Shown piece after piece: positions 2,914 to 63,870 of a stretch of DNA of 64,000 nucleotides. The position numbers and the translations under genes were made by a program. The DNA lies in assembly GCA_016182085.1 (NCBI GenBank), contig JACOYB010000009.1:1393-65392 (forward strand), written 5' to 3'. This DNA comes from Candidatus Magasanikiibacteriota bacterium (GTDB lineage: Bacteria > Patescibacteriota > Patescibacteriia > Magasanikbacterales > GWA2-37-8). Positions within the stretch are counted from its first letter, which is position 1, and each line of letters starts with the position of its first letter. The notes under the pieces were generated by a model. The model worked only from the letters and a program-made list of their open reading frames with translations, was not told the DNA's origin and made no database searches.

Positions 2914-3048
2914 ATGATAGTCAAACGCAAACAAGGATATTATGTCCTGTCCAAAAAAACCCGCAAAAATCTAGGCGGGCCATACAAAACCCGCGCCGAG
3001 GCGGTCGCACGCTTGCGGCAGGTTGAGTTTTTTAAGCATGCGAAATAA
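2914..3048 (+). CDS. Small basic protein (44 aa) immediately upstream (5 nt) of the DpnI-like gene; paralog of 1465..1662
   Basis: MIVKRKQGYYVLSKKTRKNLGGPYKTRAEAVARLRQVEFFKHAK. Not in the ORF track (below size cutoff). Found because it is a direct DNA repeat of 1465..1662. Confidence 0.4.
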   Translation: MIVKRKQGYYVLSKKTRKNLGGPYKTRAEAVARLRQVEFFKHAK

Positions 3049-3053
3049 ACTTT

Positions 3054-3824
3054 ATGAATTTATCTTTTGAAACAAAATTAGCCGATAAATATACAAGTTC
3101 CTCTCAAAAAATAAGAGTTTTGACAGAGGATTGGGTGGATAGACAAGTTTATTGTCCAAATTGTGGATATTTGGATATTGATAAATATAAAAACAATAAG
3201 CCGGTGGCTGATTTCTTTTGCTCGAATTGCAGAGAAGATTATGAATTAAAAAGTAAAAAAGATTCTGTCGGGACAAAAATAGTTGATGGTGCTTACAAAA
3301 CAATGATTGAAAGATTACAAAGTACAAATAATCCCAATTTTTTCCTACTCAACTATGATTTACGAGATTTTTCCGTTTTGAATTTTTTCGTTATTCCAAA
3401 ACATTTTTTTGTTCCAGATATTATTGAAAAGCGTAAGGCATTATCGCAAACAGCAAGACGGGCCGGTTGGATTGGTTGTAATATCTTACTGAAAAGTATA
3501 CCTGAAAGTGGGAAAATATTTTATATTAAAAATGGAAAAACTGAAGAGAAGGATAGGGTGCTTAAAAGTTGGCAAAAAACCTTATTTTTAAGAGAAGAAA
3601 AAGAAATTGCGACAAAAGGCTGGTTGCTTGATATAATGCGATGTGTTGAGAGTCTTGGGAAGAAAGAATTTGTGCTTGACGATATCTATACTTTTGAAAA
3701 AGAATTAAGTAAACTACATCCCGAAAACAAACATATTAAAGATAAAATGCGTCAGCAATTACAAATATTGCGAGATAAAGGGTATTTGGAGTTTGTGGGC
3801 AGGGGAGTTTATAGGACAAAGTAG
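3054..3824 (+). CDS. DpnI-family (type IIM, methyl-directed GmATC) restriction endonuclease
   Basis: Catalytic triad at DpnI positions D53/E64/K66, 'VADFFCSNCREDYELKSKK'. A four-Cys cluster (C34,C37,C56,C59) is present. C-terminal 'IKDKMRQQLQILRDKGYLEFVGRGVYR' resembles a winged-helix domain. Length 256 aa matches DpnI. Confidence 0.75.
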   Translation: MNLSFETKLADKYTSSSQKIRVLTEDWVDRQVYCPNCGYLDIDKYKNNKPVADFFCSNCREDYELKSKKDSVGTKIVDGAYKTMIERLQSTNNPNFFLLNYDLRDFSVLNFFVIPKHFFVPDIIEKRKALSQTARRAGWIGCNILLKSIPESGKIFYIKNGKTEEKDRVLKSWQKTLFLREEKEIATKGWLLDIMRCVESLGKKEFVLDDIYTFEKELSKLHPENKHIKDKMRQQLQILRDKGYLEFVGRGVYRTK

Positions 3825-4381
3825 TATGACCATTAATCTTTCAGCAAAATTAGCAAAGGTTATACTGTGTTTAAATCCATTCGCGAGATTAAAAGTGATG
3901 TGCAGAGGGTATAGCGAAGATTTGGATAATTTTACTGAGCTTGTCTGGGATGATGATAAGTATTTGGATTTTTACGACAAAGAAACATACCCACAACTTC
4001 AGTTGGGGTTAATATAGGAATATGAAGTTAAAAAACTTTATCGAATATTTAAAAATAATCCAAAAAATACATGGCGATAACGCAGAAGTTGTTATGGCTG
4101 ATTTTATTCCTGTCGTTGAGCCAGTTTTATTAAATTCCCATACAGGGAAACCATGTGTTGTGGTAACTGATGAAAAGTAAGATAGGGTATGAAGTATAAG
4201 AAAATTCAATTAGAATACGACAAAATATATTCTTATTTCAAAAGAACCTGCGAGCAGTTTGATTTGTTAGAATGGAACGGAAAAAGATTGGATGTCTGGA
4301 GTAATGATAAGATTATCGAAACTTATAAGTATAAAGATTTAAAAGTTATTAATATTTTTTAAATTTTGTTCTGAAATAATT

Positions 4382-5164
4382 ATGTCCACAGCAAAAGAAA
4401 TAAAATGGTTGCTAAGCACAGGTATATTATTTGCGATTTTATTTTTTAGCGGATATTTATATCTAACAATATATTTTATTGATCTAGCTGTTCCAATAAG
4501 TGATTTATCAATAGCGGAGGTGGCTCTCATGGGCTTTATTCCTTCCATGCTTTCAATTCTAACAGCGCTTATTACATTCTTATTTTTTATCCTTATTTCT
4601 GCCATAATTTTCCGCATTTTTAAAACAAAAGTAAAGGCAAAAATTAAAGAAAGATTCAAAAAAAATTATTTCAATTTTCTAATAATTGGAATTTGTCTTT
4701 TACCCTTTACAATTTATTTTTGGGCATCTTTTAATAATACACGTGGTTATCCATATAATTATATCCCAATATCAAAAAGGACAAGTCGACCAATTGTTTC
4801 AGTTTCTTATAAATCATCTTTAGTAAGTAATTACGCGCCACTAGTCGTGACAAACCAGATTGACAAGGGTACTAGCACAAAAAGCAATAGTCAGGAGGAG
4901 GTTAAAAATTATGATGCAGTATTTTTTAAGGACATTTTTATATTATACTTTGAAAGTAAAGACAGCTATTTTTTTAAAGCTAGAAAAGACTTGTTCTATA
5001 CTAGAACATCTATAACCTTTACTGAAAGTGGGAATACGACAATAATTCCAGTTGGCTTTTATAATGATATTAATAGTGGCTTTATTGTAATTCCCAAGAG
5101 TAATATTCTAGCATTAATTTATTTAGAAAACGATTTGGAAAAAGATTTTGATTTTAAAAAATAA
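4382..5164 (+). CDS. Hypothetical membrane protein (N-terminal TM helices)
   Basis: Hydrophobic N-terminal half; no recognisable motif. Confidence 0.4.
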   Translation: MSTAKEIKWLLSTGILFAILFFSGYLYLTIYFIDLAVPISDLSIAEVALMGFIPSMLSILTALITFLFFILISAIIFRIFKTKVKAKIKERFKKNYFNFLIIGICLLPFTIYFWASFNNTRGYPYNYIPISKRTSRPIVSVSYKSSLVSNYAPLVVTNQIDKGTSTKSNSQEEVKNYDAVFFKDIFILYFESKDSYFFKARKDLFYTRTSITFTESGNTTIIPVGFYNDINSGFIVIPKSNILALIYLENDLEKDFDFKK

Positions 5165-5233
5165 CATGTCAAATACTACCCCAGTAGCAGGTTGCGCGGC
5201 AATCGCTACGGGGCGAGCACCCCCACAAATTAT

Positions 5234-8470: not shown

Positions 8471-8546
8471 ATTTGTCATTCCCGCCGGAGCGGGAATCCA
8501 GACAATTGTATTGGATACTGGATTCCCATTGCGATGGGAATGACAA
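8471..8546. repeat. Hairpin repeat, subfamily B ('gtcattccc…gggaatccag.caattgt.tggattccc…gggaatgacaa')
   Basis: Near-identical architecture at 55165-55232. Overlaps the annotated 5' end of the helicase ORF. Confidence 0.65.
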
Positions 8547-19588: not shown

Positions 19589-19741
19589 AGAAAATAAGGG
19601 AAAATAACAGGATTTCTTAATACCTAATTATAACACACTTTGCTTTGGCGCTCAATCTCTTATTTTTAGCCAAAAAATTGACTTTTATATATAAATTTGT
19701 TTATATATTCGCACGGATTTTACCGTAGAAGGACGTGTGCC

Positions 19742-20449
19742 ATGTTTGTTTCCTCTCTCGTTACGTTCAATCTGGCGGGGTTGTGCGATCTTCCGTCAGA
19801 TCTGGGGCGGTCGCTATCTGCTGGTGAGATCAGTCATATCCTTGAAGTGTGTGGAGCGCTTTGGCTCCATGATGGTGATGCTCATAGGCCGCATGCGGAA
19901 CTTACTTCAGGTAAGTGCAGCGATGGGTTTGTGAATGTGCAACAAGCACTTTGCCACACTCCAATCGCCGAGATCTTGGCTGACCAGCTGATGCTGAAAG
20001 TGAGTGATGTCTACCATGGCCCAGTAGATTGGGTTGCGGGTTCGGATCATGCCGCAGCCACCCTTTCGTATAGCGTTGCCGTCAGAAACCGTGCCAGGCA
20101 CGATTTTACGGAGAAGGGGGATGGCAAATCTCAGAAGTGGAGCCGGTTCAAGATCGGTCCGGGCGAAGCGGTTCTGCAGGTGGAGGAGTTGATCACCACA
20201 CTCTTGACGATGGAGGCCGTGCGAAAAGGTATTCGCGCCGCTCATGAGTGGAATATTACCTTTACTCCGGTTGTTGGAGTTTTGGTCAATCGATCTTCGG
20301 CACAGGAGTTTGAAGGAAGTCCGATCGTATCTCTGGCTACATACGATATCAAGACTTGGGAACCATCTGATTGTCCGTTGTGCGCGGCTGGTTCCAAGCG
20401 TGTGCGACCCAAGGCCAACTGGGTTGAGCTTACTGGTCGAGCTACCTGA
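19742..20449 (+). CDS. Orotate phosphoribosyltransferase-like type I PRTase (divergent PRPP loop), G+C-rich
   Basis: 'AELTSGKCSDGF', 'PVDWVAGSDHAAATLSYSVAV' and 'VLQVEELITTLLTMEA' align with PyrE regions. The Gly of the canonical TAG(T/S) is replaced. RBS 'agaagga'. G+C far above the genome background. Confidence 0.5.
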   Translation: MFVSSLVTFNLAGLCDLPSDLGRSLSAGEISHILEVCGALWLHDGDAHRPHAELTSGKCSDGFVNVQQALCHTPIAEILADQLMLKVSDVYHGPVDWVAGSDHAAATLSYSVAVRNRARHDFTEKGDGKSQKWSRFKIGPGEAVLQVEELITTLLTMEAVRKGIRAAHEWNITFTPVVGVLVNRSSAQEFEGSPIVSLATYDIKTWEPSDCPLCAAGSKRVRPKANWVELTGRAT

Positions 20450-20492
20450 CGAGCTGGCAACTAGAGTCTGTTTAGAATCGGAGGGTTTAATG

Positions 20493-20559
20493 AAACTGCC
20501 CGTCGATTCGTTAGATTTTTATAATAGAAATTTAGCGAATCGGGCAGTTTTTGTTTTTT
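20493..20559 (+). terminator. Intrinsic terminator after the OPRT-like gene
   Basis: Stem 'aaactgcccgtcgattcg' … 'cgaatcgggcagttt' followed by 'ttgtttttt'. Confidence 0.55.
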
Positions 20560-20651
20560 AGAAATTTTGACATACCTTTTTACTTGCTATAGACTTCTTT
20601 CACAAGAAGGGCTTACAACAAGCCCATCACAATTTGGGGAGGTATTTTGTC

Positions 20652-21350
20652 ATGATGCAATCGCGTTTGACTGCCAATCATGTTGTTCTAGCCGCCGACA
20701 CCCTTACACTCGAGCAGTGTTTGCGGCTCGGTCCGCTCATCGGCAATCGCGTCTACGCCGTCAAGATCCATGTCCTGTGGGATCGGCATGGGCCATCGGT
20801 CGTCAATCAGCTCAAGGAAGCTGGTTTCCGTCGGGTTTGGGTGGACCTAAAGCTGCACGATACCTCGGACACTGTCGCATTGCGCGCGAAAGAGGTGGCT
20901 GAGGCTGGAGGTGATATTGTGAGTGTGCACATATCTGGCGGCAAGAGGATGATGCAGGCTGCGAAGAAGTCAGGGATTAAGGTCTTCGGCATCACCATCC
21001 TTACCTCGCTTGAAGAGCGTGAGGTGATGGAGGTCTACCGTAGCGACGTGCTGCAGAACGTGATGTCGCTTGCGCTCAAGGCAAAGCAAGCGGGGATCGA
21101 TGGGGTCGTCTGTTCACCGCGAGAAGTTGTGGTGCTTGCTAGCTGGAACGAACTCGCTGGTCTCAAGTTCGTCACTCCCGGTGTTCGTTCGCCGGGAAAG
21201 GAAGTTCATGATCAGAAGCGTGTGGGTACGCCAGCCAAGGCCAGGGAGGACGGTTCCAACCTTCTTGTCATGGGTCGTCAGCTCACGGAGGCGGAAGATC
21301 CGGTTGTTGAGCTGGATCATGTCGAGGGGGAACTCAGCCTGCCCTCGTGA
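20652..21350 (+). CDS. pyrF: Orotidine 5'-phosphate decarboxylase
   Basis: 'DLKLHD' (DxKxxD), 'GGKRMMQAA', 'ILTS', 'GIDGVVCSPRE', 'VTPGVR', 'DQKRVGTP' and 'LVMGRQLTEAEDP' align with PyrF. RBS 'gggagg' 8 nt upstream of the ATGATG. G+C-rich. Confidence 0.8.
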   Translation: MMQSRLTANHVVLAADTLTLEQCLRLGPLIGNRVYAVKIHVLWDRHGPSVVNQLKEAGFRRVWVDLKLHDTSDTVALRAKEVAEAGGDIVSVHISGGKRMMQAAKKSGIKVFGITILTSLEEREVMEVYRSDVLQNVMSLALKAKQAGIDGVVCSPREVVVLASWNELAGLKFVTPGVRSPGKEVHDQKRVGTPAKAREDGSNLLVMGRQLTEAEDPVVELDHVEGELSLPS

Positions 21351-21481
21351 GGTACACTTCGTCGGTTGTTCTGTCGCTACAAGAAGTGATAGAACAGTCA
21401 GCAAGGTCTCCTGTTGTTGCTGTGCTAAATATTTATTAATTTAGTAGAGCAACGGAGATCTTGAAAATAGGAATTATAAAT

Positions 21482-21516
21482 AAACCGCTCAATTTCTCGA
21501 GCGGTTTATTTATTTT
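21482..21516. terminator. Bidirectional intrinsic terminator between pyrF (+) and clpB (-)
   Basis: 'aaaccgctc aatttct cgagcggttt', then 'atttatttt' on the + strand and U-rich sequence on the - strand. Confidence 0.6.
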
Positions 21517-21543
21517 AATTTCCGAGTATGTATGAAAAATACC

Positions 21544-36707: not shown

Positions 36708-36781
36708 GGAGGTCTATTTGACATAATTATCTTATATGTTAATCTTTGTATTTAAGACAAAAAAACACCAGGGAGGCATCC

Positions 36782-37159
36782 ATGAATTGGCGCGAAGTTG
36801 CAAACCGTGATGATGTGGTGGGCGGGGAGATTGAGACCCAAGAAGGGGAGTTCGTCTTCCGCGGCCCGATCGCATCTGTAGAAGTTCGTGATGACGGCCT
36901 GGTCTATTTCCAGGTTGCCTGGGCAGCCCAGAAACCGATCAGCATGGAAGGCGGATGGGTGAAGCATGAGACCACGAGCTTCGTGGCGAGTGCAGATGTT
37001 TCGGTGGAAGATATCGGTGAAGGCAAACTTCACTTCCGGACTTCGTTTGCGGAGTCTGGTACTATCTTCCTGAAGGGGAGTGGTAACAAACTTGATCCAC
37101 GCAGGGTTCGTGGCCTGCGGGTTTGCAAGAGTCACAAAAGACATGCCAAGGCTTCTTGA
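36782..37159 (+). CDS. Hypothetical protein (G+C-rich island 2, ORF A)
   Basis: RBS 'cagggagg' 6 nt upstream; downstream hairpin 'acacctttaattaggtgt' plus T-run near 37258-37290. Confidence 0.4.
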   Translation: MNWREVANRDDVVGGEIETQEGEFVFRGPIASVEVRDDGLVYFQVAWAAQKPISMEGGWVKHETTSFVASADVSVEDIGEGKLHFRTSFAESGTIFLKGSGNKLDPRRVRGLRVCKSHKRHAKAS

Positions 37160-37428
37160 GGATGAGTTTGGGCAGCCATTGTAGGGGGAAATCAGTAAGG
37201 CCGTCCAAATTGCTTTGATTATAAAAGTTGTAGTTAAAGCAATGACGGTCTTAATAAAACACACCTTTAATTAGGTGTATTTTATTATTTAAAATTGCAA
37301 AACCACCGCCCCGAACTCATCTTTGCAGATAAAATCGGAAACGGTGGTTGAAAGAATCCTCGACCGGCATCACTTGTTCCATAGATCAAATGTCCGAATA
37401 GCTAAGATTCTAGTTGGTTATTGCGTAC

Positions 37429-37740
37429 TTACTCAACGGCCTGGATAGCGTCCAGCGAGCCGAGAAGTCTGGCGATGAAGAGATCTTCGGCAGCTCCGCT
37501 GAAGTGCTGAGAAAGTTCGATCGTGATGGTGCGATCGGCGTTTCCCCGCCAGTCTCCGTAGCTGCCCACAGAGGTGAGCAATTCGTCGTCCTCAATTGAG
37601 GCCGGCGCCAGGTAGTTCTCGCTCATCCGAAGTAGTTCTCTGACAGCGCCGGTTGCGCCATGTTTGAACTGCAGTCTCAACTTACGACTGCCCTTGCGCG
37701 CCTTCCTCAGTTCGGCAAACATCTGCTCTCTCGTATTCAT
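37429..37740 (-). CDS. Hypothetical protein (island 2, ORF B)
   Basis: RBS 'ggag' before the ATG at 37740; convergent terminator hairpin 'aaccaccg…cggtggtt' near 37300-37360. Confidence 0.4.
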   Translation of the reverse strand: MNTREQMFAELRKARKGSRKLRLQFKHGATGAVRELLRMSENYLAPASIEDDELLTSVGSYGDWRGNADRTITIELSQHFSGAAEDLFIARLLGSLDAIQAVE

Positions 37741-37890
37741 ACACATCTCCGAGGTGGAATGGAATTTGTTTGTGCAGTGAACAAGGCAGGATAGTACCAT
37801 ACTTTTTGCCCCAGGTCAATTAAAACCAGCAATCATGATTGACAATAATAATTAATGTGTTAGTCTTATTTACCAGGAGAAGGAGCTATT

Positions 37891-38244
37891 ATGAAATGGA
37901 AAAAGGTTGATCGGGTAGATAAAGGGATTACCATAACCGGAAATCATGGTGTTCCGCCCACAAGATGGTGGAACCACTGGTGGCTTGCGCTCTTCGGCTG
38001 GAAGACAATTGTCACGTTTAGTCTTCCTGATGAGGTGGCGACAAGCGGGTACCGTGTTGGCTTCACGACCAAAGACGGTAAGTCATGGTGTAAGCGCACA
38101 ATCGCGCACGATAAGTTCTTTAGCATGAAAATTGGGTACGAGGATTGCAAGTTCTGGGTCAAAGCGGCCCGCAATCCCGAACAGCCCGATACCGATGGCG
38201 CAGTGATTTTGCCCGAGCTCATCAGCAGAGGGCCTCTTCACTAA
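37891..38244 (+). CDS. Hypothetical protein (island 2, ORF C), Trp-rich N-terminus
   Basis: RBS 'aggagaaggag'; terminator 38316-38346. Confidence 0.4.
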   Translation: MKWKKVDRVDKGITITGNHGVPPTRWWNHWWLALFGWKTIVTFSLPDEVATSGYRVGFTTKDGKSWCKRTIAHDKFFSMKIGYEDCKFWVKAARNPEQPDTDGAVILPELISRGPLH

Positions 38245-38315
38245 GATGCAGCCATCTTTTCCAAGACGTACCCACCGCAAGGCGTTTTGGAAATAAAAAA
38301 ACTTGCGGTTTGAGC

Positions 38316-38346
38316 AAAAACAACCTTCATGAGAAGGTTGTTTTTG
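38316..38346 (+). terminator. Intrinsic terminator
   Basis: 'aaaaacaaccttc atga gaaggttgttttt'. Confidence 0.6.
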
Positions 38347-38464
38347 CTAGCTCTTTAATTATTGTTAAAATTCCTAGTAGGGAGTTTTTTGATTTTAAGT
38401 CTGTATGTATTTTTACAAAAAATTATGCTATTCTAAGTGCGGTAGAATATAACATCATTTATAT

Positions 38465-38818
38465 ATGGGTAAGAAATCATTTGAAACAGGAGGTTTGTTG
38501 CCACAGAAACAGACAAGCGAAGAGAATAATGAGAATTTGGAACTTGAGAAATACGCTACCGGAGAAATAGCAAATAGTGAGATTGCCGCCAAGGAATTTG
38601 CCAAGTTTGGTTTTAAAGTGGGTGATAGGGTAGAGGTTGCAGGAAGTTTAATGGAGCCGTATGAGGGCACTATTGAATATTTTGAAGTTGAAGAGGTTGG
38701 GGCGAGAAGCGTATCTTATCGTGCCTATGTAAAGGTAAAAGGTGCAGAGGATCTATATTATTTTACATTACAAGCAATAAAACATCCTTCTTCGGCAATA
38801 AGGGTAACTAAAATTTAA
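38465..38818 (+). CDS. Hypothetical protein
   Basis: 117-aa ORF. Confidence 0.3.
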   Translation: MGKKSFETGGLLPQKQTSEENNENLELEKYATGEIANSEIAAKEFAKFGFKVGDRVEVAGSLMEPYEGTIEYFEVEEVGARSVSYRAYVKVKGAEDLYYFTLQAIKHPSSAIRVTKI

Positions 38819-38852
38819 TAGGTTATACACGGTTGCGAAATACCACCAGTGC

Positions 38853-39797
38853 TTATTTTTCAAATAACGGATGAAAATCATGGTGTGTTTTTTCTGCAAA
38901 TTTATCGGAAGCATGCACATAACGAGTGGTTGTGTCTAGAGATTCATGTCCCAAAAGTATCTGAATCGCTGCCGGATTAGCCCCGTTTTCAGCCAAATAA
39001 GTGGCAAAACCATGTCTTAGCGTATGCGCGCTAATCGGAAGGTTTATATCTAGTAATTCTCGATATTTTTTTATTTTAAATTGTAAATAGTTAGTTGAAA
39101 TTTTTTTATTTTTTTCATTATTATTTCGGCCGCGGTAGGGGACAAATAGCATTTCAGAAGTGCTGTTGCGTTTTGCCATGTAATTTTTTAAATGAGTAAC
39201 AGCTCTAGGGGTTAAATAGGCAAAGCGCTGTTTTTTACCTTTCCCAAGTATGTAAACACGTCCGGTTTGATCAATCTGGTTAACTTTTAGCGACAATAAT
39301 TCTGATATACGCATGCCGGTGGCAAATAATGTTTCTAACATAGCGCGATTGCGCAAAGCCACACGCTCGTCATCCTCATATTTCATCGGAGCTTCAATGA
39401 TTTTTATCAACTCTCCAAATTCAGGAATTTGCGCGTGTTTTTTTATATTTTTTATTAGTTTTACGGCGCCGGATGAAACAGGCGGATCATGATCCATATC
39501 TTCCATAAATTTTAAGTACGATCGGAGGGCTGACAGCATTCGATTTATGGAATAGCTGCTTAATTTTTTATTTGTTTTTTCCCCGGAAACAGATGTTTTG
39601 CGATCAGATGACGCCAAGTAGGCTTTATAGCGTAAAATATCAGTTTTATTTATTCTGTTAAAGGGTGTTTTTATATCTTCGTTTAAAAAAGTTTCAAAAG
39701 TATTTAAATCGCGTTCATAGTTATACGCAGTTTCTTCCGAGAAGTTATTTGCTTTTAAGTTTAAAATAAAATCATCTAAATAGGGAAGTTGGTTCAT
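38853..39797 (-). CDS. Tyrosine site-specific recombinase (XerC/XerD/phage-integrase family)
   Basis: 'HTLRHGFATYLAENGANPAAIQILLGHESLDTTTRYVH' carries the R..H…R..Y catalytic signature; N-terminal core-binding domain. Confidence 0.8.
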   Translation of the reverse strand: MNQLPYLDDFILNLKANNFSEETAYNYERDLNTFETFLNEDIKTPFNRINKTDILRYKAYLASSDRKTSVSGEKTNKKLSSYSINRMLSALRSYLKFMEDMDHDPPVSSGAVKLIKNIKKHAQIPEFGELIKIIEAPMKYEDDERVALRNRAMLETLFATGMRISELLSLKVNQIDQTGRVYILGKGKKQRFAYLTPRAVTHLKNYMAKRNSTSEMLFVPYRGRNNNEKNKKISTNYLQFKIKKYRELLDINLPISAHTLRHGFATYLAENGANPAAIQILLGHESLDTTTRYVHASDKFAEKTHHDFHPLFEK

Positions 39798-55119: not shown

Positions 55120-55300
55120 TTTGTCATTGTGACTACAACCTTTTGGTCTACACGTTCCCGTAGTTGTCATTCCCATCGAAATGGGAATCCAGTCGACAAT
55201 TGTCTGGATTCCCGCTTTGGCGGGAATGACAATATATGGACAAAGATTCCTCACACAAGAGCCTGCCCTGAGCTTGTCGAATGGGTTCGGAATGACAGTG
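55120..55300. repeat. Cluster of hairpin repeats (subfamily B plus partial copies) between atpC and atpD
   Basis: 'gtcattcccatcgaaatgggaatccagtcgacaattgtctggattcccgctttggcgggaatgacaat', plus flanking 'ttgtcattg…' and '…ttcggaatgacag'. Confidence 0.65.
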
Positions 55301-61928: not shown

Positions 61929-61957
61929 TTGACAAAACACGAACTTATTGTTACTAT
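61929..61957 (+). promoter_or_regulatory. Sigma70-like promoter TTGACA-17-TACTAT driving the island-3 acidic ORF
   Basis: TTGACA at 61929-61934, 17-nt spacer, TACTAT at 61952-61957; RBS 'aaaggag' before the ATG at 62040. Confidence 0.5.
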
Positions 61958-62039
61958 TCTTCGTTATGTAGAAGCGGCACGCAGGGGGTGTGCAACTTCT
62001 CATAATAGACCCTAAACGGCGAAAGGAGCCGTTTTCCCG

Positions 62040-62396
62040 ATGACCGACTACCACACGGATGATGATCCCGAACTTTTTGGTCTGGAGATCGCAGGCCTTT
62101 TGGCCTGCTTCGCCGATACCGGAACCCTTCCTTCGCTAGAAGACGAGGGGGCAGAGATCACGATCAGCGAGTTTTCCGACGCTGATCTGTTCAACTGGGA
62201 GGTCGAACACGCGGTCGACACTGCCGTTGTCGTGCCGGAGCCCGCTGGGCTGAAGGCAGCAACTGCGGAACCGACCAGCGTGGATGATGGTTGGGAGATG
62301 GAAAACCCGGGTGACACCGAGGAGAATACCCAGGTTGATCGCCCGCGTCACATGATCATTACGGCAGAAGGGCCCCGTCTGGTCCACCACGAGTAA
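62040..62396 (+). CDS. Highly acidic hypothetical protein (about 29 D/E vs 4 K/R in 118 aa), G+C-rich
   Basis: MTDYHTDDDPELFGLE…; strong RBS and promoter; followed by hairpins at 62423-62485 and 62509-62543. Confidence 0.4.
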   Translation: MTDYHTDDDPELFGLEIAGLLACFADTGTLPSLEDEGAEITISEFSDADLFNWEVEHAVDTAVVVPEPAGLKAATAEPTSVDDGWEMENPGDTEENTQVDRPRHMIITAEGPRLVHHE

Positions 62397-62508
62397 TTGG
62401 GTGTGCCGGCGCGAAGCCTCTGTTCGCCGCCGCACTACCGCTTTCAAGATAAAAAATATTTGTCTTGTAAAGCGGTGGCGGCGAACTTCACAAAGAACAG
62501 ATATAACA

Positions 62509-62543
62509 AAAACCCTCCGACGTAACGTCGGAGGGTTTTTGTT
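62509..62543. terminator. Intrinsic terminator (A-tract/stem/T-tract, probably bidirectional)
   Basis: 'aaaaaccctccgacg taa cgtcggagggtttttgtt'. Confidence 0.65.
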
Positions 62544-62802
62544 ATATTGACCATTTACTTAAAAATATGGTACGAATTATTTAGGAGGGAATAACATGAA
62601 CTTTGCCGAGGGATTGATTGGAACGGCCCTGGAAATCTTCCTGAACTGGATGGCGCTCATGTACCGTATCCGGGAGCTCGTCCGGATTGACCTCTTCCCC
62701 TTGTCCTCCTAGTTAGTACCTTGTGCCGGGCTTCACGCCTAGCACGTCGTCCTAGAGAGGGTAACAACCAGCCGGCGTCACACACTGTTGTGACGCCGCA
62801 AA

Positions 62803-62840
62803 ACAAAAACAGCTTTCAACTTAAAGCTGTTTTTGTTTTC
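62803..62840 (+). terminator. Intrinsic terminator
   Basis: 'acaaaaacagcttt caactt aaagctgtttttgtttt'; preceded by a second hairpin 'ggcgtcaca…tgtgacgcc'. Confidence 0.6.
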
Positions 62841-62894
62841 AACAATTGACCCATTTTATATAAGTATGCTAGTTTACATACAGGAGGTAGTAGT

Positions 62895-63155
62895 ATGAAG
62901 AAGCACGCGACTTTCTTTGAGAACCTGGTGGATTGGATTGCGGAGACGCGGCGCACGGTGCAGCTAAACGAGGTGTTGGAAGAACTTGCTTACTGGGTGG
63001 GACAGTTCGTTATTGCGGTGAGCAGAGAGCTTACCCCCGAAGGTTTGCAGAAGTTCTTCAGCGGTTTGAGCGGCGGGTATATCAATACGATGGACCTAAA
63101 CATCGACCTGGATGGAATGCATGCCGATGAACTTCTCTGCAAGAAAAGCAGGTAG
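62895..63155 (+). CDS. Hypothetical protein (island 3)
   Basis: RBS 'acaggagg'; 86 aa. Confidence 0.35.
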   Translation: MKKHATFFENLVDWIAETRRTVQLNEVLEELAYWVGQFVIAVSRELTPEGLQKFFSGLSGGYINTMDLNIDLDGMHADELLCKKSR

Positions 63156-63266
63156 GTCACCCCTACTCCGCAAGGTCTTCGCCTCGCCCGAAAATTCGGA
63201 GCGAGGCAATGCATTTTTATAGGAGAAATGAATTAAGTTTAATTTTTTAAATATTACTGACACCCC

Positions 63267-63295
63267 TTGACAAAAGGGGTGTTTTGGTGTATACT
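63267..63295 (+). promoter_or_regulatory. Near-consensus sigma70 promoter TTGACA-17-TATACT, with a palindrome overlapping the -35
   Basis: 'caccccTTGACAaaaggggtg' ('cccctt'/'aagggg' arms), then 'ttttggtgTATACT'. Confidence 0.55.
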
Positions 63296-63421
63296 GCTGG
63301 GTTGCTCTTTTAATGACCGATGGTACCTGTCGAGGGAGAAAAATACGTTAAATTAGCATATTTTTCCCCCTCGGCACCAAATTTTCGCCGAGATAACCAG
63401 TTTCGCGAGAGGAAAACCGCC

Positions 63422-63790
63422 ATGAACACCCTGTCCAAGATCGTCACCATCCTGACCCTGGTCGCTCTGATCCTGGCCATGGCCGTCAACCCGGCCTACG
63501 CCGACCGTTCGGTGGTCCGCATCCGCAAGAACGGCCCGCTCACGCAGAAGCACCGCAACGCGATCAGCGAGATCGAGCACATCATGCGCCGGTCGGGCGA
63601 CAGCCAGAAGCGGCCGACGAAGTTCTCATACTCCTGCAACCAGGGGAACGAGAAGATTCGGCAGATCGTCGCCACCTTCCCCGCGGACGAGCAGTTCATC
63701 CTGTCGGACGAGTGGGACGGCGAGTGTTTCTTCTACATCCCGCCGACCCGGAAGGTCAACAAGGCGCCGGTGATGGTCGCCAAGAAGTAG
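63422..63790 (+). CDS. Small secreted protein (signal peptide MNTLSKIVTILTLVALILAMAVNPAYA), very G+C-rich
   Basis: RBS 'gagaggaaaa'; a leader of about 120 nt with a 15-bp stem ('cgagggagaaaaata' … 'tatttttccccctcg'); terminator 63838-63870. Confidence 0.45.
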   Translation: MNTLSKIVTILTLVALILAMAVNPAYADRSVVRIRKNGPLTQKHRNAISEIEHIMRRSGDSQKRPTKFSYSCNQGNEKIRQIVATFPADEQFILSDEWDGECFFYIPPTRKVNKAPVMVAKK

Positions 63791-63837
63791 CAACACCCTG
63801 GCCAAGGCCGCGCAAGCGACCAAGGCCGAGACAGCCC

Positions 63838-63870
63838 GAAGCCCGCACATCAGCGGGCTTCTTTATTTTT
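63838..63870 (+). terminator. Intrinsic terminator
   Basis: 'gaagcccgc acatca gcgggcttc tttattttt'. Confidence 0.65.

Follow-up and report, generated by a model that had tools for sequence, protein, structure and literature searches.

A G+C-rich islet with a pyrE-like gene and pyrF, probably acquired laterally, in the variable clpB-PBP gap of a Magasanikbacteria genome

A stretch of 64,000 nucleotides (the window) from contig JACOYB010000009.1 of a Candidatus Magasanikiibacteriota bacterium was analysed for the origin and function of a G+C-rich island. A first-pass annotation, made from the letters alone, had placed this island at 19690-21520, between clpB and a gene for a penicillin-binding protein (PBP)-like protein, and had assigned to it pyrF and a gene resembling orotate phosphoribosyltransferase (OPRT). 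The flanking genes are indeed a PBP-like peptidase S11 gene and clpB, and the content is a bona fide type-1 pyrF plus a gene whose product, called PyrE-like here, is by profile and fold a divergent OPRT. The island comprises about 1.8 kb in all and consists of two monocistronic units, not one operon, both of which are antisense to the flanking PBP gene and clpB. Its elements are given below from left to right, with the G+C content at third codon positions as GC3; L002 (CAZUFD010000003.1, from a different metagenome-assembled genome) and the third lineage L078 carry genes at the same place.

19627-19655, minus strand: promoter-like site of the resident PBP gene (TTGAGC-17-TATAAT with TG), called by the promoter scan; left edge of the insertion site.
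19679-19741, plus strand: promoter-like stretch of the pyrE-like gene (TTGACT, AT-rich -10) and leader with ribosome-binding site GAAGGA; G+C 0.30.
19742-20449, plus strand: PyrE-like gene, 235 aa; G+C 0.53, GC3 0.53; most likely a divergent OPRT.
20492-20561, plus strand: end of the pyrE-like unit with a putative intrinsic terminator (long imperfect hairpin, T-run); dG -32 kcal/mol, z = -8.0.
20567-20595, plus strand: promoter-like site of pyrF (TTGACA-17-TAGACT), called by the promoter scan; kept in L002 and L078.
20596-20651, plus strand: pyrF leader with a small hairpin (GGGCTT/AAGCCC) and ribosome-binding site GGGGAGG; weak fold (z = -2.5), sequence kept in L002 and L078.
20652-21350, plus strand: pyrF, 232 aa; G+C 0.57, GC3 0.64; type-1 orotidine monophosphate (OMP) decarboxylase.
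21402-21463, plus strand: 62-nt imperfect hairpin 3' of pyrF; dG -32 kcal/mol, z = -8.4.
21476-21513, both strands: putative bidirectional intrinsic terminator of pyrF (plus) and clpB (minus), with 15-nt perfect arms; right edge of the insertion site.

Both coding sequences start at ATG codons behind good ribosome-binding sites. The two terminators that had been proposed were recovered as hairpins at 20503-20543 (plus strand) and 21476-21513 (both strands), and the terminator-like hairpins fold well beyond shuffled sequence (z -7 to -8.4). Promoter-like sites are present as well; the earlier notion of a single unit with its own promoter did not hold, as each of the two genes has its own site. 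The TTGACT expected at the start of the island lies at 19679-19684, although the -10 rule of the consensus scan called no promoter there. The surrounding promoter-like stretch is identical in L002 and deleted in L078; judged by its sequence, it may serve as the promoter of the pyrE-like gene, and the use of the other promoter-like and terminator-like sites is likewise predicted from sequence. Both edges of the insertion site are conserved: a GATTGAG...TGnTATAAT block precedes the PBP gene in L002, L078, two further relatives (L076, L081) and L083, in which the site is empty, and the clpB terminator is found at the position of 21476-21513 in every relative. Rfam searches of the whole window (gathering threshold) and of the island (E ≤ 1) returned nothing meaningful and no PyrR-type leader.

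The composition of the island differs clearly from that of its surroundings. In 300-bp windows G+C is 0.54-0.56 at 19800-20249, 0.43 at 20400-20699 and 0.56-0.58 at 20700-21299, and it is again 0.36-0.40 by 21300-21450. The two lobes coincide exactly with the coding sequences 19742-20449 (0.53) and 20652-21350 (0.57), and the three non-coding stretches around them are host-like (0.30, 0.38 and 0.36). The by-eye estimate of 55-60% G+C is thus correct for the peaks but too high for the mean, which is 0.528 over 19742-21353; the backbone, estimated at about 35-40%, was measured at 40.3% after removal of the island (40.6% with it). A genome of really about 55% G+C, which would make the backbone the outlier, is ruled out, as backbone and relatives lie at 0.38-0.43 with the exception of L088 (0.47), whose 12.6-kb locus contains a 3.3-kb G+C-rich insert. 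GC3 amounts to 0.53 for the PyrE-like gene and 0.64 for pyrF compared to 0.38 ± 0.067 in 45 other open reading frames (ORFs) of the window, and G+C at first (0.60-0.67) and second (0.39-0.47) codon positions is also elevated. The GC3 expected from the host codon table and the amino-acid content of each protein is 0.418 for PyrE-like and 0.407 for PyrF. After this correction the excess is +0.10 for the pyrE-like gene (z = 3.6, about the 90-95th percentile of control genes) and +0.23 for pyrF (z = 7.9, above the 99th percentile); the control genes reach z 4.4 at the 95th and 7.5 at the 99th percentile. Furthermore, the 1.6-kb window from 19801 is the top outlier in the 64 kb for both the G+C-normalised dinucleotide signature (z = 6.2) and the tetranucleotide signature (z = 5.9), the latter being a check that the first-pass annotation had suggested. 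The compositional anomaly is real and not due to chance, and all these measures agree with the foreign composition claimed for the island.

PyrF is a bona fide type-1 (subfamily 1) OMP decarboxylase according to its sequence. It scores 129.2 bits against PF00215 (cut-off 27) and 129.8 bits against TIGR01740 (cut-off 92.3), and falls slightly under the cut-off of the stricter model NF001273 (175.9, cut-off 193). The translation contains YAVKIH with the upstream Lys, VDLKLHDTSDT with the DxKxxD motif, and VMGRQL with the phosphate-binding GR. Compared to known type-1 PyrF proteins (TIGR01740/PF00215) it is full length with both DxKxxD and GR, and differs only in composition and in its monocistronic context.

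The PyrE-like protein is most likely a divergent OPRT of a Patescibacteria-wide family, as suggested by its sequence and structural model. A total of 508 homologues was detected, and all named ones belong to Patescibacteria (Uhrbacteria, Gribaldobacteria, Jorgensenbacteria and others); at NCBI the family is mostly labelled 'hypothetical', at JGI OPRT. The AlphaFold model has a mean predicted local distance difference test (pLDDT) value of 95.8, and the top 30 Foldseek matches against the PDB are OPRTs only, with 4paw as the best (TM 0.83 on target). The family profile matches this OPRT of H. pylori (HP1257) with E = 6e-15, and the alignment covers the SG-x-S loop, the acidic pair with the TT motif and the C-terminal CPLC motif that is common to both. 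Thus the Thermus/Helicobacter-type OPRT (TIGR01367; 4paw) is the best match by profile and by fold, and PyrE-like shares with it SG-x-S, the acidic pair with TT, and CPLC-x-x-S. In contrast to 4paw-type enzymes, to which it is only about 24% identical with a score far under the family cut-off, it is extended by about 35 aa at the N-terminus and has EE in place of ED or DD as well as the family's own invariant signature of GSDHA and DFTEKG.

The loop that binds phosphoribosyl pyrophosphate (PRPP) had been noted as non-canonical. The family consensus of this loop is VLQVEELxTTTGT with an invariant EE, and the window protein has VLQVEELITTLLT, in which the acidic pair EE and TT..T, at family-invariant positions, are retained and Gly is replaced by Leu. 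The LL in place of xG is indeed a minority variant (3 of 26 family members, also L002; the two family members that share it with the window and L002 are intact), but EE is not peculiar to this gene. Selection acts on both genes: dN/dS, the ratio of nonsynonymous (dN) to synonymous (dS) divergence, is 0.17-0.24 across the two (0.21 for PyrE-like compared with L002), so both are under purifying selection. In 55 of 74 species-level genomes the pyrE-like gene has a pyrF at a distance of at most 2.5 kb, of subfamily 1 in 39 loci and of subfamily 2 in 16.

The most likely function of the pair, judged from sequence and model, would be the conversion of orotate and PRPP to OMP and further to uridine monophosphate (UMP), with orotate as the presumed physiological substrate and both enzyme activities predicted. 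According to published surveys, de novo pyrimidine synthesis is missing in large part from most Patescibacteria (PMC11974145; bioRxiv 10.64898/2026.09.16.751625), and for this reason use of external orotate, the salvage role that the first-pass annotation had considered, would be plausible. Among the 46 larger ORFs of the 64-kb window no pyrB, pyrC, pyrD, carAB or nucleobase transporter gene was found. A search of the literature on orotate or pyrE/pyrF in the candidate phyla radiation (CPR), Patescibacteria or Parcubacteria returned nothing specific, only general statements on incomplete pathways. In 11 of the 74 GTDB loci a protein of about 319 aa with a TIM barrel, weakly similar to dihydroorotate dehydrogenase, adjoins pyrF or the pyrE-like gene (for example L034, 8005-8964). 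Its assignment as PyrD was rejected (35.7 bits with Pfam DHO_dh only; 41.5 with NCBIfam, cut-off 269); judged by position and sequence, the protein may contribute a third step to the module in divergent form.

For an overview of the insertion site the clpB neighbourhoods of eleven relatives were compared. The states between clpB and the PBP gene are:

L080, L083: empty site with terminator and/or PBP promoter only; spacers of 39 bp (L080) and 111 bp (L083).
L078: pyrF alone (subfamily 1).
L082: antisense subfamily-2 pyrF (TIGR02127), G+C 0.64 and GC3 0.86, host 0.40.
L087: a second, subfamily-2-like divergent pyrF, 48% identical to that of L082 and under the model cut-off.
L076, L081, L085: unrelated small ORFs.
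L086: 513 bp without a called gene.
L088: 3.3-kb G+C-rich insert of five genes including a sigma-70 factor.
L084: synteny lost.

Unknown single ORFs of 101 aa and 185 aa are among these states. The pyrF cargo in the relatives is antisense to the flanking genes. G+C of the pyrF inserts and of those in L085 and L088 is 0.50-0.72 compared to about 0.40 in the hosts, while the ORFs of L076 and L081 deviate only mildly (0.46-0.48). All these relatives have kept the gap that separates the PBP promoter from the resident clpB terminator, and its occupants vary; thus the clpB-PBP intergenic site is a hypervariable insertion hotspot in this Magasanikbacteria clade, filled in the window by the island. 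The number of non-orthologous pyrF genes that sister lineages have taken up in this one gap is at least two and probably three.

L082 had been a candidate for an empty site, which was rejected: a G+C-rich pyrF lies there in antisense, and the gene caller had merged its shadow ORF with the PBP gene. PBP was called with 1072 aa in L082 (7405-10623) and 1056 aa in L087 (4495-7665) where the real gene has about 730 aa, the overlong calls resulting from in-frame fusion of the shadow ORF. According to this, gene callers can extend a neighbouring gene by the shadow ORF of an antisense insert that is rich in G+C. In L082, L085, L086, L087 and L088 the PBP -35 box TTGTCAA is palindromic with TTGACAA of a divergent promoter-like site. 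This site faces the cargo gene, which, judged by the sequence, may make use of part of a resident promoter.

The comparison with L078 gives an indication of the age of the insertion. At 13590-13640 of L078 the pyrE terminator is reduced to its 3' arm and T-run, which lie directly against the PBP promoter; this scar corresponds to deletion of the window-equivalent 19681-20535. Stepwise gain of pyrF and then pyrE was therefore rejected in favour of loss of pyrE, since half of the pyrE terminator is kept. In a neighbour-joining tree of ClpB, PBP and LigB, L078 falls outside ((L076, L081), (window, L002)). Because L078 lies outside this clade and nevertheless keeps the terminator remnant, both pyrE and pyrF were probably in place in the common ancestor of these lineages, with a subsequent loss of pyrE in L078. 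The insertion is thus older than the split from L002 and probably older than that from L078.

Taken together, we read the island as a lateral acquisition, at a probability of roughly 0.8, by which an orotate-to-UMP pair entered the variable clpB-PBP gap as two insulated units. An islet of about 1.8 kb would have been placed between the clpB terminator and the PBP promoter, in a gap that is used as a hotspot. The first unit would run from its promoter through the PyrE-like OPRT gene to a terminator, the second from its promoter through type-1 pyrF and the long hairpin to the shared bidirectional terminator; the two products would turn orotate and PRPP into OMP and then UMP. Horizontal acquisition, as proposed in the first pass, is borne out by the empty sites of L083 and L080 and by a phyletic gap: identity of PyrE-like drops from 93% (L002) to at most 60% beyond the clade and that of PyrF from 85% and 79% to at most 55%, whereas the ClpB relatives form a graded series (99, 93, 91, 90, 89, 83 and 82%), many of them at 82-93%. 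An identical ClpB is on record under Candidatus Magasanikbacteria, which agrees with the host. The homology search that had been recommended for tracing the donor lineage was successful in part, as the named close homologues are all from Patescibacteria and the donor itself is not among the sampled sequences. The donor may have been an unsampled Patescibacteria lineage of higher G+C.

Several results weigh against this interpretation or parts of it. Among the sampled sequences no donor above 55-60% identity was found, and the islet is not bordered by mobility genes, tRNAs or direct repeats. The tRNA scan of the whole window was negative, no recombinase lies within 17 kb of the islet, and flanking direct repeats were not seen at the junctions. 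Homologous recombination via the flanks left no trace in the form of raised identity in clpB or PBP next to the junctions when the window was compared with L078. Regarding composition, the pyrE-like and pyrF genes are G+C-richer than their neighbours at all three codon positions across 74 Patescibacteria loci from GTDB (L002-L075), with a mean GC3 difference of +0.075 that is positive in 81-83% of the loci and an excess of +0.055 to +0.062 after amino-acid correction (controls -0.004 ± 0.067). This GC3 excess is also seen in the subgroup with conserved pheS-pheT-gyrB synteny and in about 80% of the 74 loci overall, and part of the G+C excess may be a property of these genes and not a trace of the donor; the excess in the window is well above the family-wide one. 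With respect to function, PyrE-like stays below the curated OPRT cut-offs (TIGR01367 65.6 bits, cut-off 150.25; TIGR00336 17.2, cut-off 106.8), and its lineage has TTLLT in the PRPP loop where the family has TTxGT.

An unlikely alternative, in our view, is that PyrE-like is no OPRT at all but a protein with a phosphoribosyltransferase fold that acts on a different substrate, serves as a regulator or has become an inactive relic; the pair would then not lead from orotate to UMP. Zero Pfam hits (PF00156 included) would fit such a protein, as would the TIGR01367 score of 65.6 bits under the cut-off of 150, the EE in place of a DD pair, the TTLLT of this lineage against TTxGT in most members, and the presence of pyrF without pyrE-like at the site in L078, L082 and L087. 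Nevertheless, 30 of the 30 best structural matches are OPRTs, the SG-x-S, acidic and TT, and CPLC motifs align with those of 4paw in the profile comparison, and the linkage to pyrF is tight (55 of 74 genomes). A relic is further contradicted by the dN/dS of 0.21, by retention of TTLLT in L002 and by recurrence of the Leu variant in other intact family members. The label 'hypothetical' at NCBI results from the scores under the curated cut-offs.

We give little credence to vertical inheritance, according to which the pair is ancestral and its high G+C results from amino-acid content and synonymous selection. Raised G+C at first and second codon positions is as for a conserved enzyme, and the GC3 excess is family-wide (about 80% of loci) with the pheS-syntenic subgroup included. 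Constrained synonymous sites would also suit the dS of pyrF, which between window and L078 is 0.71 compared to 1.7-2.5 for the flanking clpB, PBP, LigB and PriA genes; dN is not lower, and the low dS means that the cassette was either exchanged laterally at a later time or is constrained at its synonymous sites. Against an ancestral pair, L083 and L080 have an empty site and further relatives have different cargo, including the non-orthologous pyrF genes of L082 and L087, and Magasanikbacteria homologues at 60-79% identity are missing despite many sampled genomes. Furthermore, no part of the window deviates more in G+C-normalised dinucleotide signature than the island, and synonymous changes in pyrF on the window branch comprise 13 GC>AT versus 3 AT>GC (4 to 6 on the L002 branch), an excess consistent with ongoing amelioration.

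The abrupt compositional change is the only point for an assembly chimera, in which a fragment of a G+C-richer organism would have been joined into an AT-rich contig, and the chance of this is negligible. An independent Logan contig (L001, SRR12113430) matches at 100% identity for 16,944 bp across both junctions, L002 aligns through the island as a single block of about 91% nucleotide identity (PyrE 93%, PyrF 85%, flanking proteins 74-99%), the genes of L002 and L078 occupy the same position and have diverged to an ordinary degree, and the junction DNA is AT-rich, host-like, regulatory and kept in relatives; barring an artefact common to all these assemblies, the island is not a chimera and the first pass's alternative can be set aside.

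HGT hotspots or 'islets', that is, sites of horizontal gene transfer between conserved core genes, have been reported across many bacterial pangenomes. The clpB-PBP site resembles them in being empty or filled with differing atypical cargo and in having no adjacent integrase or tRNA. It differs from typical islets by its cargo of one to few genes, by pyr cassettes that lie antisense between a resident terminator and a resident promoter, by recurring non-orthologous pyrF, and by a homologous hairpin that is kept by different cargos. Phage morons are independent promoter-gene-terminator units of deviant G+C inside prophages. The island genes are similar in having each a sigma-70-like promoter and an intrinsic terminator of their own and a G+C content unlike the surroundings, but they are flanked by housekeeping genes and not by a prophage. 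No relatives of the PyrE-like family were found in IMG/VR contigs and blastn gave no match of the island in GenBank phages; a phage vector is therefore unsupported.

The hairpin 3' of pyrF belongs to a family of about 66 nt with copies at the same position in L002, L078, L082, L087 and L085, that is, behind four different cargos. In the alignment of these hairpins 12 of 26 pairs have compensatory changes. A covariance model built from them finds a copy in the window that was not used for training, at 37191-37256 on the plus strand (45.8 bits, E = 2e-11), and a weak match at 62420-62486. The copy at 37191-37256 has AAGG...UCUU ends, a G-U pair at the fourth position and a UUGCU/AGCAA upper stem, and lies directly 3' of a G+C-rich single gene with promoter (36782-37159) and before a canonical terminator. 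No copy was found with the model in 1.09 Mb around other Patescibacteria pyrE-like genes. At least 120 matches to the hairpin-end pattern in metagenomes were dismissed as chance, the covariance model giving at most 22 bits at the 80 loci examined. The hairpin family is the only potentially new element here, and we regard it as a lead, not a finding.

Integron cassettes consist of an ORF followed by an imperfect attC hairpin. The units described here are like them in that a single ORF precedes an imperfect hairpin, about 60-70 nt long, in which compensatory changes preserve the stem despite the change of cargo, and in that a second hairpin copy follows another foreign-looking ORF. Unlike in integrons, no integrase or attI is found next to the site, which is bordered by clpB on one side and the PBP gene on the other; a promoter-like site of its own precedes each gene, the units number no more than two and form no array, and the hairpin ends are AAGGTCTCC...GGAGATCTT and not the RYYYAAC/GTTRRRY R''/R' cores. 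It is conceivable, but improbable, that the clade has a cassette-type gene capture by which foreign G+C-rich promoter-ORF-hairpin units are installed and then swapped at permissive intergenic sites. The hairpin of about 66 nt would then be the constant element, either as recombination site or as mobile 3' RNA module.

Other regions of the window are also unusual. An islet of small monocistronic genes at 36720-38830, the second-strongest dinucleotide outlier of the window, adjoins a tyrosine recombinase gene (38853-39797). It includes three G+C-rich genes, 36782-37159 (plus), 37429-37740 (minus) and 37891-38244 (plus), with GC3 0.56-0.67 and with promoter-like sites and terminators of their own. 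A second G+C-rich region, 61930-63870, contains four small ORFs: 62040-62396 (GC3 0.66), 62596-62712 (0.82), 62895-63155 (0.69) and 63422-63790 (0.96), the last with a signal-peptide-like N-terminus. Each follows a TTGACA-type promoter-like site and is followed by a hairpin terminator; the ORFs had no Pfam match and the region no rRNA or other Rfam match. Two copies of an element of about 74 nt with 29-nt inverted arms and a short hairpin in each arm (TTGTCATTCCC...GGGAATCCAG / CTGGATTCCC...GGGAATGACAA) lie at 8473-8546 and 55164-55232; from its sequence the element looks like a repetitive extragenic palindromic (REP) repeat or a miniature inverted-repeat transposable element (MITE). The most AT-rich stretch, 3001-5200 (G+C 0.29-0.33), carries a gene for a DpnI-family restriction endonuclease (3054-3824), a 260-aa ORF without Pfam match and a PD-(D/E)XK nuclease gene, and may be another acquired block of opposite compositional sign.

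The analysis flags a large Patescibacteria OPRT family that the NCBI pipeline calls 'hypothetical'. Patescibacteria are thought to depend on partners for nucleotides, and the islet gives a junction-resolved case of a probable lateral gain of nucleotide-synthesis steps in a CPR bacterium, with empty, partial and replaced states among the sampled relatives. If cassette-type capture were true, the repeated uptake of non-orthologous pyrF with or without pyrE would mean strong selection on CPR cells. The recurrence of non-orthologous pyrF at one gap suggests recurrent selection on the final steps of UMP synthesis in this clade.

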